Shown here: positions 12,401 to 18,676 of the stretch, piece by piece
Position numbering within the stretch: position 1 is the stretch's first letter
Layout: every line of letters begins with the position of its first letter
Assembly: GCF_003334355.1 (NCBI RefSeq)
Contig: NZ_QOWP01000024.1
Direction: 5' to 3' (one strand)
Source: Escherichia coli
GTDB taxonomy: Bacteria > Pseudomonadota > Gammaproteobacteria > Enterobacterales > Enterobacteriaceae
DNA length: 64,000 nt
Notes under the pieces: model-generated
Told to the model about the DNA's origin: nothing
What the model saw: only the letters and a program-made list of their open reading frames with translations
The model's database searches: none
Translations under genes and position numbers: made by a program

Positions 12401-12406
12401 ACCATA

Positions 12407-12446
12407 CGCACAGAATGTGATGTCAGCACTCTGTGCGTCTGCTTTT
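12407..12446 (+). terminator. Intrinsic terminator after eamA
   Basis: Stem cgcacaga/tctgtgcg followed by tctgcttttat. Confidence 0.45.
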
Positions 12447-13143
12447 ATCGCGGGAAAAAGTACTTTACCTGGAACTCGATAATATTGCTGTAAAGTAACG
12501 AATAATCCAGCGGAATAGAGTTACTGTCCACAGCCTGGGTCTGAATTTTAAGTATGGGATCCCGTGGGCTGATCCGTAAAATACTGGCGATTTCTGGGGT
12601 AGGAAAAGTAGGGGAGAAAGTTTCATAGGTGCCAATGATTTTGATCCCGCATTCGTTCTCAATATACGAAAATTTGGATTTTTGCATATGTGATACGGTT
12701 AAATCAGGAAAACGTGCCACTGACATCCACGTTTCTTCTAATTGTGCCGCATTATCCTCAATGAATCGCAGTCTCTTTATGTAATAAACCTGCTCACCGG
12801 GCACTAAATTCAGCTCAGTTGCAATAGTGGGTGAAGCATCCTGCACTTCAAATTTCATAATCTGACTCCCTGCCTCTTTGCCGCTTTTATGCGCAATTTC
12901 ACTGAAGCTGTTCATGTGATCAATGTGTGCAACAAAATTCTTTTTTTGAATGTATGTTCCTGAACCATGCTTTCTGTGAATAATTCCTTCGCCTTCCAGC
13001 AAGGATAATGCCTTACGCAGGGTATTACGCGAAACATTATAACGAACTGCGAGTTCAGCTTCTGACGGCAACAAATCACCAACGTGCCATGAATAGCCAT
13101 TGATCTCAGATTTAAGTAAGCGGGCAATCTTTTGAAAAATCAC
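12445..13143 (-). CDS. GntR/HutC-family transcriptional regulator (HTH plus UTRA domain), accessory island
   Basis: 232-aa ORF with an N-terminal GntR HTH (LPSEAELAVRYNVSRNTLRKALSLLEGEGIIHRKHGSGTYI) and a UTRA-type effector domain. It is divergent from the PTS genes. No K-12 counterpart at this position (recollection). Confidence 0.75.
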   Translation of the reverse strand: MIFQKIARLLKSEINGYSWHVGDLLPSEAELAVRYNVSRNTLRKALSLLEGEGIIHRKHGSGTYIQKKNFVAHIDHMNSFSEIAHKSGKEAGSQIMKFEVQDASPTIATELNLVPGEQVYYIKRLRFIEDNAAQLEETWMSVARFPDLTVSHMQKSKFSYIENECGIKIIGTYETFSPTFPTPEIASILRISPRDPILKIQTQAVDSNSIPLDYSLLYSNIIEFQVKYFFPR

Positions 13144-13341
13144 TTTTGCACCTTTTAAGAGCCATTGAAAACAAGGAGTTGAGTCCTGATTGGTTTATCG
13201 TATGGCCGAGTCGTTTAATTATTACCCTGATGTTGAACAACTTTATTACTGTATTACTGTGATCAATGTACCAGGATGTATAGCTACTGCGGGATATGAT
13301 ATTTACACAATGTAGTCTGTTATATACCAGTAAGGGAAAAT

Positions 13342-13653
13342 ATGAAAAAGATATTGTTAGTTTGCGCTGCGGGCATGTCAACCAGTATGCTGGTTAAACG
13401 TATGATTGATCATGCTAACGCTATTTCACTTGAAGTTAATATTTCCGCATTGGCGATTGCAGAGGCTAAAGGAAAAATTAAAAATAACGAAGTTGACGTT
13501 GTTTTACTTGGCCCGCAAGTTCGCTTTCAGAAACCGGAGATTGAAGCCGTTGCACAGGGGAAAATGCCTGTAGCCGTTATCGAGATGAAAGACTACGGCA
13601 CCATGAACGGACAGGCAGTTCTTGAATTTGCGATGAAACTACTGCAACAGTAA
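13342..13653 (+). CDS. PTS lactose/cellobiose-family EIIB component
   Basis: 103-aa ORF with the N-terminal active-site Cys context (ILLVCAAGMSTSMLV), typical of ChbB-like IIB. Confidence 0.8.
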   Translation: MKKILLVCAAGMSTSMLVKRMIDHANAISLEVNISALAIAEAKGKIKNNEVDVVLLGPQVRFQKPEIEAVAQGKMPVAVIEMKDYGTMNGQAVLEFAMKLLQQ

Positions 13654-13767
13654 GAATCTAATATTATTAAACTATTACCTGAACTAATTTTTCACACATC
13701 ATAAAATGGATATGGCATACATGCTTTATTGGGATGTATAAATATCCAAAACAACAGGTATAAAAAA

Positions 13768-15483: not shown

Positions 15484-17156
15484 ATGAATATAAAGACGCT
15501 TAACATCAGCCTTTTGTCTTTTTCTATTATTACAGCATTGTTTCCATTGAACGCGATGGCAACAAAATTAACCATAGAGCAGCGCCTTGAATTGCTTGAA
15601 AATGAATTGTCGCAAAATAAACAAGAGCTGAAAGCAACACAGAATGAACTGGGAGTATATAAATCCCGACTTTCGACCTTACAAAAAAGCATCACGGAAA
15701 ACAAATATAAATCAGCCTCGCTTGCTGAAATATCAGCGACATCTCCCGTCGCTGATAACATCAAAAATGAAAACGGTGAACAGAACTCGTCTGCCGCAGC
15801 GCATACTATAAATGGATCGCAGCAAGTTGCCGTTATTGAAAGTAAAGGCGACAAAACCACTATCGAAAGCGTGACCCTGAAAGATATCAGTAAATATATA
15901 AAGGATGATATTGGGTTCAGCTATCAGGGGTACTTCCGCTCAGGCTGGGGTACTGGTAATCACGGCTCACCACAAACTTATGCAGCGGGTTCTCTGGGAC
16001 GTTTTGGTAATGAGATGAGCGGTTGGTTTGACCTGACCTTAAATCAGCGTGTTTATAATCAGGAAGGTAAAACGGCAAATGCGGTCGTTACCTATGATGG
16101 CAACGTGGGTGAGCAGTATAACGATGCCTGGTTTGGTGACAGTGCCAATGAAAATATCATGCAGTTCAGCGATATTTACCTGACAACGCGAGGTTTTTTA
16201 CCCTTCGCACCAGAGGCAGACTTCTGGGTCGGCAAACATAAACTCCCGCAATATGAGATCCAGATGCTGGACTGGAAAACCTTAACCACGGATGTCGCCG
16301 CGGGTGTGGGGATTGAAAACTGGGCACTTGGTGTAGGGCTGTTTGATATGTCCTTAAGCCGTGATGATGTCGATGTTTACTCTCGTGATTTTTCGCGTAC
16401 CAGCCAGATGAATACCAATTCTGTGGATGTTCGTTATCGCAATATCCCGTTATGGGATGATGCGACATTATCATTAATGGCTAAATATTCCGCACCTAAT
16501 AAAACGGATCAACAACAAGATAACGAAAATGACAACAGTTATTTTGAAATGAAAGATAGCTGGATGCTGACTTCTGTTTTACGGCAAAACCTGCAACGCG
16601 ATACGTTTAATGAATTTACGTTACAGGTTGCCAATAATTCCTATGCCAGCAGTTTTGCCAGTTTCTCAGATGCCAGTAATACGATGGCGCATGGTCGCTA
16701 TTACTATGGTGATCATACCAATGGGATCGCCTGGCGTTTAATCTCTCAGGGCGAGATGTATCTTACTGACAATATTATTATGGCTAACGCGCTTGTCTAT
16801 TCTCACGGCGAAGATGTTTATAGTTATGAAAGTGGTGCTCATAGTGATTTTGACAGTATTCGCACTGTAATAAGACCGGCCTGATCTGGAATACATGGAA
16901 TCAGACGGGGCTTGAATTAGGCTGGTTTAAGCAACAGAACAAAACTCAGCAGGGTGTAACACTAAATGAATCGGCTTATAAAACGACACTCTGGCATGCA
17001 TTGAAAGTGGGTGAAAGCATTTTAGGTTCACGACCAGAAATTCGCTTCTATGGAACGTATATCAATATTCTGGATAACGAATTATCGAATTTTAAGTTTA
17101 ATGAGAACAGCAAAGACGAGTTTATGGCCGGCATCCAGGCGGAAGTCTGGTGGTAA
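15484..17156 (+). pseudogene. BglH-like carbohydrate-specific outer-membrane porin (LamB family), frameshifted near 16876-16884
   Basis: Signal peptide plus N-terminal coiled coil ([16 protein letters not shown]), collinear with K-12 BglH. The track ORF stops after ...SIRTVIRPA and the C-terminal 92 residues ([10 protein letters not shown]...AGIQAEVWW) continue in another frame to 17156. Confidence 0.7.
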
Positions 17157-17180
17157 TCTATTTTAGTTAAGGAGTTGTGT

Positions 17181-18620
17181 ATGTCAGGATTTAAAAAAGG
17201 TTTTTTATGGGGCGGCGCGGTAGCCGCGCATCAGTTGGAAGGTGGCTGGAATGAAGGAGGAAAAGGCATCAGTATCGCTGATGTGATGACTGCTGGCGCT
17301 CACGGGGTGCCGCGTGAAGTGACAGAAGGCGTTATCGACGGGCTTAATTATCCCAATCATGAAGCAATTGATTTTTATCATCGCTATAAAACAGATATTC
17401 AGTTATTTGCCGAGATGGGATTCAAATGCTTTCGAACTTCCATTGCCTGGACACGAATCTTTCCGCAAGGTGACGAACAGGAGCCGAATGAAGAGGGTTT
17501 ACAATTTTATGATGATCTGTTCGATGAATGCCTTAAGCAGGGAATGGAACCTGTGGTGACGCTTTCACATTTTGAGATGCCTTATCATCTGGTGACAAAA
17601 TATGGTGGCTGGCGAAACCGTAAACTGATCGACTTTTTTATCCGCTTCGCATCAACGGTCTTCACGCGCTATAAAGAAAAAGTAAAGTACTGGATGACGT
17701 TTAACGAAATCAATAATCAGGTGAATTTCAGCGAAAGCCTGTGTCCATTTACTAATTCCGGTATCTTGTATTCGCCAGAGGAAGATATCAATGAGCGCGA
17801 ACAAATAATGTACCAGGCGGTACATTACGAGTTAGTTGCCAGTGCCCTGGCGGTACAGACTGGAAAATCGATTAATCCTGAATTTAATATCGGCTGCATG
17901 ATCGCCATGTGCCCCATCTATCCTCTGACGTGTGCACCCAACGATATGATGATGGCGACGAAAGCGATGCATCGTCGTTACTGGTTTACTGATGTTCATG
18001 CTCGTGGATATTATCCGCAACATATGCTGAATTACTTTGCCAGGAAAGGATTCAACCTCGATATCACACCAGAAGATAACGCGATTCTTGCCAGAGGTTG
18101 TGTCGACTTTATCGGTTTTAGCTACTACATGTCTTTTACGACACAATTTTCGCCCGATAACCCGCAACTGGATTATGTTGAACCACGAGATTTGGTCAGC
18201 AACCCTTATATCGATACATCCGAATGGGGATGGCAAATTGATCCGGCAGGGCTACGTTATTCACTCAACTGGTTGTGGGATCATTTCCAGTTGCCGCTGT
18301 TTATTGTCGAAAATGGATTTGGTGCGGTTGACCAGAGACAAGCTGACGGCACAGTGAACGATCACTATCGCATTGATTACTTTGCTTCCCATATTCGTGA
18401 AATGAAAAAAGCCGTAGTCGAAGATGGTGTTGACTTAATTGGCTACACCCCGTGGGGCTGCATTGACCTGGTTTCTGCCGGAACAGGGGAAATGAAAAAA
18501 CGCTACGGAATGATTTATGTCGATAAAGACAACGAAGGGAAGGGAACGCTGGAAAGGATACGTAAAGCGTCGTTTTACTGGTATCGGGATCTCATCGCCA
18601 ACAATGGCGAAAATATTTGA
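17181..18620 (+). CDS. 6-phospho-beta-glucosidase (glycoside hydrolase family 1)
   Basis: About 479 aa with GH1 signatures ([16 protein letters not shown]; the NEP acid/base motif in TFNEINN; the ENG nucleophile motif in IVENGFG). RBS-like aggag lies 7 nt upstream of the ATG at 17181. Confidence 0.85.
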
Positions 18621-18645
18621 GACTTCAGAAAGATATTACGGAGAT

Positions 18646-18671
18646 GTCAGGCTCTGTGATCAGAGCCTGAC
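18646..18671. terminator. Hairpin between convergent glucosidase gene and marB
   Basis: Perfect 11-bp stem gtcaggctctg/cagagcctgac with loop tgat; flanking T-runs are weak. Confidence 0.4.
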
Positions 18672-18676
18672 AATAA

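Follow-up and report, generated by a model that had tools for sequence, protein, structure and literature searches.

The 64,000-nucleotide stretch of Escherichia coli DNA analysed here (contig NZ_QOWP01000024.1 of assembly GCF_003334355.1; hereafter the window) carries a block of six genes between eamA and marB, which encode a transcriptional regulator, three components of a sugar phosphotransferase system (PTS), a porin and a glycoside hydrolase. This block is an already known accessory sugar-utilisation operon that is present in about half of E. coli and is inactivated in the window. The initial annotation of this DNA had not named it as a known operon. Its gene content and order match those of bgc (bgcR plus bgcE-F-I-H-A), and we put the probability that the block is the E. 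coli bgc locus, an already characterised beta-glucoside/cellobiose cassette, at roughly 0.9.

The importance of this result goes little beyond bookkeeping, and it contains no discovery to carry forward. The locus is a clean example of a metabolic islet that is free of mobility genes and sits in a probable bidirectional terminator, with the ancestral empty allele segregating at equal frequency.

Gene content and identity with the bgc operon

Six genes occupy the eamA-marB interval both in the list of open reading frames (ORFs) of the window and in the annotation by the Prokaryotic Genome Annotation Pipeline (PGAP) of strain PSS-12, which is 100% identical to the window across 11400-19800. An intact bgcR-like gene on the minus strand (12445-13143) encodes a 232-residue regulator of the GntR family, HutC subfamily, with helix-turn-helix and UTRA domains; it is divergent and lies 198 bp upstream of the IIB gene. 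The other five genes are on the plus strand. They comprise an intact bgcE-like gene (13342-13653) for a 103-residue enzyme IIB (EIIB) of the lactose/cellobiose family, with Cys8 in the P-loop motif VCAAGMSTS; a bgcF-like EIIC gene of the same family that is a pseudogene (13768-15089); an intact bgcI-like gene (15117-15428) for a 103-residue EIIA, again of the lactose/cellobiose family, with the motif HAQDHLM; a bgcH- or BglH-like gene for a LamB-family carbohydrate porin with an N-terminal coiled-coil extension, also a pseudogene (15484-17156); and an intact bgcA-like gene (17181-18620) for a 479-residue 6-phospho-beta-glucosidase of glycoside hydrolase family 1 (GH1), with the catalytic motifs TFNEIN and IVENGFG.

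Family scans were run on the intact proteins of strain IAI1, and the Pfam matches had been precomputed on the orthologs of Escherichia albertii. The intact IIC passed TIGR00410, the model of the lactose/cellobiose subfamily (335 bits, cutoff 236), and fell short of the ChbC equivalog (278 bits, cutoff 760), while IIB and IIA matched lactose/cellobiose models with scores under the NCBIfam equivalog cutoffs. The E. albertii orthologs matched PTS_IIB (PF02302), PTS_EIIC (PF02378), PTS_IIA (PF02255) and Glyco_hydro_1. On the intact orthologs, the system belongs to the PTS lactose/cellobiose family (TC 4.A.3); the window's own IIC is truncated. The porin orthologs matched Sugarporin_N (PF11471) and LamB (PF02264), residues 146-557 of the intact porin matched the maltoporin model (4e-60), and over its full length the intact protein shares 53% identity with BglH of K-12. 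A plain sequence search returned no PDB relative of the porin, despite these clear profile and Pfam matches. The intact orthologs are LamB-type sugar porins with a complete C-terminus, and the window copy lacks the latter.

The GH1 enzyme exceeds the curated cutoff of the 6-phospho-beta-glucosidase model NF007154 (1037.6 bits, cutoff 624) and has both catalytic glutamate motifs in the window, which places it in GH1. It is 50% identical to K-12 BglB, and its closest PDB matches are phospho-beta-glucosidases, with 806 bits for 3pn8, a Streptococcus mutans (Gram-positive) enzyme, versus 681 bits for E. coli BglA (2xhy). The 5' part of the gene (17201-17728) also matches the Enterococcus faecalis plasmid LR961926.1 at 72.6% DNA identity, which fits the higher score of the enzyme on 3pn8 than on BglA. 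The regulator resembles HutC-subfamily GntR proteins and passes no equivalog cutoff in the scan of the intact IAI1 protein; its E. albertii ortholog carries the Pfam domains GntR and UTRA. These model and Pfam matches bear out the families proposed in the initial annotation, which had named a PTS of the Chb type, a BglH-like porin, a phospho-beta-glucosidase of GH1 and a GntR regulator in divergent orientation.

The bgc locus was described as a fourth system for beta-glucosides in E. coli, and as cryptic (PMC4488073). The operon comprises five genes, among them those for IIB (BgcE), IIC and IIA (BgcF, BgcI) and the phospho-beta-glucosidase BgcA, it is regulated positively by the GntR-type protein BgcR, and bgc* mutants grow on cellobiose, arbutin and salicin when the temperature is low (PMC3585215). 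According to the ORFs, the PGAP annotation and the family matches, the block has the order IIB-IIC-IIA-porin-phospho-beta-glucosidase, and a divergent GntR-type regulator adjoins the operon (12445-13143, minus strand). All six gene families, their order and the divergent GntR-type regulator are the same as in bgc; the variable presence among E. coli, a CRP-like site in the promoter region and the higher score of the GH1 enzyme on 3pn8 than on BglA are further likenesses. The window copy is unlike bgc in that it is frameshifted in bgcF and bgcH. Neelakanta, Sankar and Schnetz (Appl Environ Microbiol, 2009) reportedly identified the fifth bgc gene as that of the porin BgcH, with bgcR divergent and with expression that needs CRP. 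Their abstract is said to report bgc from E. albertii too, and homologs from Klebsiella, Enterobacter, Citrobacter and Gram-positive bacteria. We found the block in E. albertii and homologs in Klebsiella, Enterobacter and Citrobacter, which agrees with that reported distribution. The identification is therefore strong but indirect, since it combines the match in gene content and order with what the 2009 abstract is said to state.

The following points weigh against this identification. The same abstract reportedly describes bgc as prevalent in phylogroup B2 and rare in commensals, and IAI1 (B1) and many small-genome strains carry the block as well. It is listed as missing from 536 and F11, both of them B2 strains (PMC2831201). 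Among the protein clusters no 'Bgc' names were found, only generic ones. Finally, binding of CRP and BgcR at their predicted sites is suggested from conservation only.

These predicted sites lie in the divergent control region (13144-13341, 35.9% GC). It contains a CRP-like site of the form TGTGA-N6-TACCA (TGTGA-tcaatg-TACCA; 13258-13273, with TGTGA at 13258-13262), a candidate -10 hexamer TATGAT (13295-13300) and, at ~13212-13242, conserved GTT(T/C)A...TGAAC arms that form a candidate BgcR operator. The TGTGA core is invariant in the alignment of 15 bgcR-bgcE intergenic sequences, which range from E. coli to Erwinia. The centre of the CRP-like site falls at -41.5 from the transcription start predicted off the TATGAT hexamer, a spacing that suggests class II CRP promoter geometry. 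A consensus scan for promoters and terminators performed no better than on shuffled sequence (17 promoter-like sites versus 17.3 expected), and an Rfam scan of 11400-19900 gave zero matches. Between the IIA and porin genes, a stable 11-bp stem-loop followed by a U-rich tract gives a terminator-like match on the plus strand (15432-15459; RNA fold -20.4 kcal/mol, z = -4.2). This hairpin could be an internal attenuator or an mRNA-stabilising element, and it could uncouple expression of the PTS from that of the porin and the hydrolase.

In an intact copy, the LamB/BglH-type porin BgcH would pass beta-glucosides across the outer membrane. A phosphoryl relay would run from phosphoenolpyruvate through enzyme I and HPr to EIIA (BgcI) and on to EIIB (BgcE), while EIIC (BgcF) would translocate the sugar, which would enter the cell as the 6-phosphate. 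The GH1 enzyme BgcA would then cleave the 6-phosphate to glucose-6-phosphate and glucose or an aglycone. What is established for these protein families implies the porin, relay, translocation and cleavage steps. The divergent HutC-type GntR regulator BgcR, together with CRP, would control the promoter in the 198-bp intergenic region.

The natural substrate might instead be another beta-linked disaccharide, for example plant glucomannan or oligosaccharides of the mannobiose type, as in the related GmuR and BguR systems. BgcR reportedly resembles BguR as well as the glucomannan regulator GmuR of Bacillus subtilis (PMC3585215). Moreover, the IIC fits only the broad lactose/cellobiose subfamily model and no substrate-specific equivalog, and the bgc operon is reported to be cryptic and is in wide decay. 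We nevertheless consider such a substrate improbable: the growth reported for bgc* mutants was on cellobiose, arbutin and salicin (PMC3585215), the GH1 enzyme scores over the cutoff of a 6-phospho-beta-glucosidase model, and the porin has its 53% identity to a beta-glucoside porin, BglH.

Comparison with other named systems separates the bgc-like block from each of them. The bgl operon (bglG-bglF-bglB-bglH) likewise is a cryptic, AT-rich aryl-beta-glucoside PTS with a dedicated LamB-type porin and a GH1 enzyme. However, bgl combines a fused glucose-family EIIBCA (BglF) with the antiterminator BglG, whereas in the block IIB, IIC and IIA are separate proteins of the lactose/cellobiose family and the regulator is a DNA-binding one of the GntR/HutC type; a BglG/SacY-family antiterminator, a ribonucleic antiterminator (RAT)/terminator leader and a fused glucose-family EII are all absent from the block. 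The chb operon (chbBCARFG) shares the separate lactose/cellobiose-family IIB, IIC and IIA and can mutate to cellobiose use, but it has the AraC-type regulator ChbR, the GH4 enzyme ChbF and a deacetylase, has no porin and is core in K-12. The Firmicutes systems gmuBACDREFG (B. subtilis) and bgu (Streptococcus pneumoniae) also combine a HutC-type regulator with a lactose/cellobiose PTS and a GH1 enzyme. In contrast to the block, they have no outer-membrane porin and their regulators are repressors, whereas BgcR is reported to be an activator.

Two single-base deletions in the window copy

Compared with IAI1, the window has exactly two indels within the block. In the IIC gene, one C is lost after 14404 (CCCC to CCC), and the protein ends at about residue 216 of 440. 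In the porin gene, one G is lost after 16882 (GG to G), which gives an immediate TGA; the porin of the window has 466 residues instead of 557, and its C-terminal beta-strands are gone. PGAP marks both genes as 'frameshifted' in strain PSS-12.

Judged from these lesions, the window copy is unable to take up its substrate, because the IIC and porin genes each carry a 1-bp deletion and both the permease and the porin are thus broken; bgcR, bgcE, bgcI and bgcA are intact. At 28 C, this copy is predicted not to support growth on cellobiose, arbutin or salicin, even after promoter activation. The initial annotation only hinted at damage and has to be revised in this respect: the copy is pseudogenised, and in the annotation of the window genome beta-glucoside use via the bgc locus is to be scored as absent.

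Both frameshifts could in principle be errors of sequencing or assembly that hide an intact and potentially functional operon. This would suit the IIC lesion, which is a one-base change in a short homopolymer and occurs in one of the 5426 complete E. coli genomes, that of PSS-12. However, the lesion is common to the window and PSS-12, which are different assemblies: PSS-12 carries a copy of the insertion sequence (IS) IS5 beside ydeE (window-equivalent ~9900-10045) that the window does not have, and 3 mismatches and 1 gap separate the two over 11.2 kb. The window thus stems from a close relative of PSS-12 outside the set of complete genomes. Therefore, the IIC deletion is probably real. The porin lesion, in turn, recurs in 73 of the 5426 genomes, which are independent of one another, and decay of the operon elsewhere is independent and common. 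An operon that only seems broken is accordingly a very unlikely explanation.

Damage of several kinds was seen in other copies. Several complete E. coli genomes have IS1, IS5/ISKpn26, IS66 or IS903B insertions inside the block, and one carries a deletion that runs from inside eamA to the last 139 bp of the block. In one E. coli-like contig both bgcR and the IIC gene are split, and several E. albertii genomes are without called IIC, IIA or porin genes. Such repeated decay, with frameshifts in the window, in 73 further genomes and in several E. albertii and with IS insertions and deletions besides, fits a cryptic system that is useful only under certain conditions.

Boundaries, distribution and age of the insertion

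The endpoints, which the initial annotation had left to an alignment with K-12 MG1655, were resolved by BLAST. The K-12 locus aligns to 9138-12390 and 18675-21883 of the window, and homology breaks at 12390|12391 and 18674|18675. Thus, 6284 bp of the window (12391-18674) stand opposite 38 bp in K-12, which are a terminator spacer, and eamA and marB are only 30 bp apart in MG1655. The proposal of six extra genes in about 6.2 kb that are accessory relative to K-12 is confirmed, and the coordinates originally assigned to them, 12401-18676, were correct to within 10 bases. The left core flank is eamA (11501-12400, plus strand), the gene of an O-acetylserine/cysteine exporter, whose product ends in ...KVRG* as in the outgroups; compared with less derived empty alleles, its frame is colinear through the stop codon at 12400. 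The right core flank is marB (18677-18895, minus strand). Both genes were taken from the PGAP annotation of the near-identical genome.

A stem-loop stands at each edge. Between the convergent eamA and bgcR genes, at the left edge of the inserted DNA, an inverted repeat at 12403-12441 folds with -17.4 kcal/mol (z = -3.6). This stem-loop, which IAI1, CFT073 and E. albertii have conserved, probably acts as a bidirectional terminator. A perfect 12-bp stem-loop (18645-18672; RNA fold -23.3 kcal/mol, z = -5.8) lies between the convergent bgcA and marB genes.

The block had also been proposed as strain-specific, and this does not hold. At a query coverage of at least 80%, 2494 of 5426 complete E. coli genomes contain the block, with an identity to the window of at least 99% in 1576 records and of 95-99% in 990. 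Of the 5426, 2481 have a complete K-12-type empty junction (141 bp). IAI1 and CFT073 have intact copies at the same eamA-marB site, and E. albertii carries the block there as well. The copy of CFT073 corresponds to c1955-c1960, a six-gene set annotated as 'PTS system, cellobiose specific' and described as variable among Escherichia genomes: UTI89, HS, E24377A, B7A and SMS-3-5, among others, have it, and K-12, O157:H7, 536, F11 and Shigella lack it (PMC2831201). Taken together, the genome counts and this survey of the CFT073 set identify a common accessory locus rather than a strain-specific one.

Empty sites in relatives indicate which state came first. In Citrobacter koseri, eamA (ending in RG*) is followed by a 32-bp spacer with a GCCCCGCAGTGGCGGGGC hairpin and then by marB. 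In a non-coli Escherichia, which is 89% identical to K-12 at the nucleotide level, eamA (RG*) is accompanied by a GCCCCGATATGCCGGGGC hairpin, and two divergent E. coli (~97% identity) have eamA (RG*) and GCCCCGAGATGTCGGGGC, which is exactly the hairpin of K-12. The empty sites of the outgroups thus consist of eamA with RG*, a GCCCCG...CGGGGC hairpin and marB. Because they carry the same terminator, this comparison identifies the empty site as the ancestral state and the block as an old insertion that is still segregating. The block allele keeps RG* and, at its right end, GAGATGTC (18641-18648). The latter matches the ancestral eamA-marB terminator in its loop and 3' stem and therefore marks the right edge of the inserted DNA. 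It looks as if ~12402-18640 had been inserted into this terminator, the right half of which was later remodelled to the 12-bp hairpin.

The opposite order of events, in which the block is an original core operon and the K-12 state is a deletion, accounts for part of the same evidence. E. albertii carries the block at the same site with a divergence equal to that of the flanks, and the B1 and B2 copies also differ as much as their flanks do. In addition, the EamA terminus is ...RG in every outgroup and every block carrier, among them E. albertii and ~100 Citrobacter and Enterobacter orthologs, but ...GS in K-12. However, the empty sites of C. koseri, the non-coli Escherichia and the divergent E. 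coli combine the short GCCCCG-stem terminator of K-12 with a conserved RG*, the GS* of K-12 is four point substitutions away from the other empty alleles and involves no fusion, and the K-12 spacer is not derivable by joining the present ends of the block. Loss of a core operon from K-12 is thus a poor explanation, to which we assign a low probability.

Two specific deletion models were rejected. The GS* of K-12 EamA is not a deletion scar, since the four point substitutions explain it. Likewise, K-12 did not arise by a simple deletion between the GATGTCAG repeats, for which the predicted junction differs and the outgroups show that the spacer is ancestral.

The insertion also appears to be old. 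Between IAI1 and E. albertii, nucleotide identity is 80-85% in the block genes and 81-90% in the flanks; between IAI1 and CFT073, the corresponding values are 96-98.4% and 96.7-98.9%. Three block-bearing and three empty genomes show no fixed difference between the alleles over 2.2 kb on either side. The flanks track lineage and not allele, as illustrated by CFT073 (block) and AVS0787 (empty), which differ at 1 of 300 positions next to the right junction. Therefore, the alleles co-existed long enough for recombination to uncouple the flanks from them, which may reflect either ancient introgression or a polymorphism that has been maintained.

In composition, the block is AT-richer than its surroundings, as the initial annotation had stated: its GC content is 42.6%, versus 46.6% and 48.0% in the adjoining 6 kb on either side. 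The individual block genes range from 41.5 to 45.0% GC, and eamA, ydeE and marB have 50-51%. The low GC content, the variable presence and the location at different loci in different genera would be expected of a genomic island acquired recently through an integrase, a transposon or a plasmid. The remaining evidence speaks otherwise. A tRNA scan of the window found none, and neither the ORF list nor the PGAP annotation has an integrase or IS ORF in or adjoining the block, in agreement with the initial description of its edges. Terminal direct or inverted repeats were not found at the block ends beyond a weak GATGTCAG..CTCTGTG similarity, and an attL/attR/attB model fails for want of conserved arms. 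The block consequently has none of the hallmarks of a classical genomic island or integrative element, namely an integrase or transposase, a tRNA or att target and flanking direct repeats. Furthermore, the PLSDB matches include no genuine plasmid copy, and the block is as divergent as its flanks, both from one phylogroup to another and from one species to another. Recent acquisition as a mobile island is largely refuted and is the least probable of the explanations considered here.

Plasmid carriage was rejected since the PLSDB matches are chromosome-sized or chromosome-like fragments, all of them non-mobilizable. Two of these records, NZ_OL790696.1 and NZ_CP134663.1, measure 4.8 and 4.9 Mb, are evidently chromosomes and explain the apparent 'plasmid' copies.

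The two ends of the block (12412-12432 and 18641-18661) share an imperfect direct repeat, GATGTCAG(CA/G)CTCTGTG, whose GATGTC core is also present in the loop of the ancestral empty-site terminator. The repeat fits neither an att nor a target-duplication model. Site-specific recombination through the GATGTC core shared by both ends and the empty site was considered and rejected, as the expected attL/attR arms are not conserved.

The pre-insertion terminator of the empty allele, the flank-like divergence of the inserted allele between E. coli and E. albertii, the frequency of ~46% for both alleles and the absence of fixed flank differences among six genomes lead to a further and speculative reading, that presence and absence of the block are an ancient polymorphism kept by balancing selection. 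We regard this as unlikely, though somewhat less so than the alternatives discussed above. If both alleles dated to about the E. coli-E. albertii split, this would point to long-term niche-dependent selection, for example between cool plant or environmental habitats and the gut, and recurrent pseudogenisation would mark the lineages that left that niche.

Related cassettes and neighbouring genes

One genome per species was scanned for the porin, and tblastn was run with all proteins of the locus. The porin was found in 32 loci. E. albertii has bgcR-IIB-IIC-IIA-porin-GH1 followed by marB-marA-marR, at the same site as in the window. The same six genes occur in the same order, with no mar genes nearby, in Citrobacter sp. 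On2M, Salmonella enterica subsp. diarizonae and Erwinia psidii. In Kluyvera, Raoultella, Klebsiella sp., Enterobacter sp., Cedecea, Buttiauxella and Ewingella, the GH1 gene is on the other side of the regulator gene. The Citrobacter cassette lies between a transketolase gene and nudK, and that of S. diarizonae between genes for an NAD(P)H nitroreductase and an esterase autotransporter; neither has adjoining mobility genes. The initial annotation had viewed the block as a mosaic, and the combination of a Chb-type PTS with a Bgl-type porin and a GntR regulator is indeed present. Its supposed local novelty is not supported, as the same cassette recurs in other genera and the combination thus represents a conserved enterobacterial cassette.

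Two further observations concern the flanks. In the locus of a non-coli Escherichia (10572-12033), two extra genes, for a rhodanese and a DJ-1/AraC-type regulator, lie between ydeE and mgtS; E. coli is without them at that position. The marB allele of the window is unusually divergent and differs from that of IAI1 at 9 of 219 positions, while identity is 99.3-99.5% in the adjoining marA and marR. Over the first 300 bp of the right flank, the window differs at 9-11 positions from each of five other E. coli, versus only 2 differences between IAI1 and K-12.

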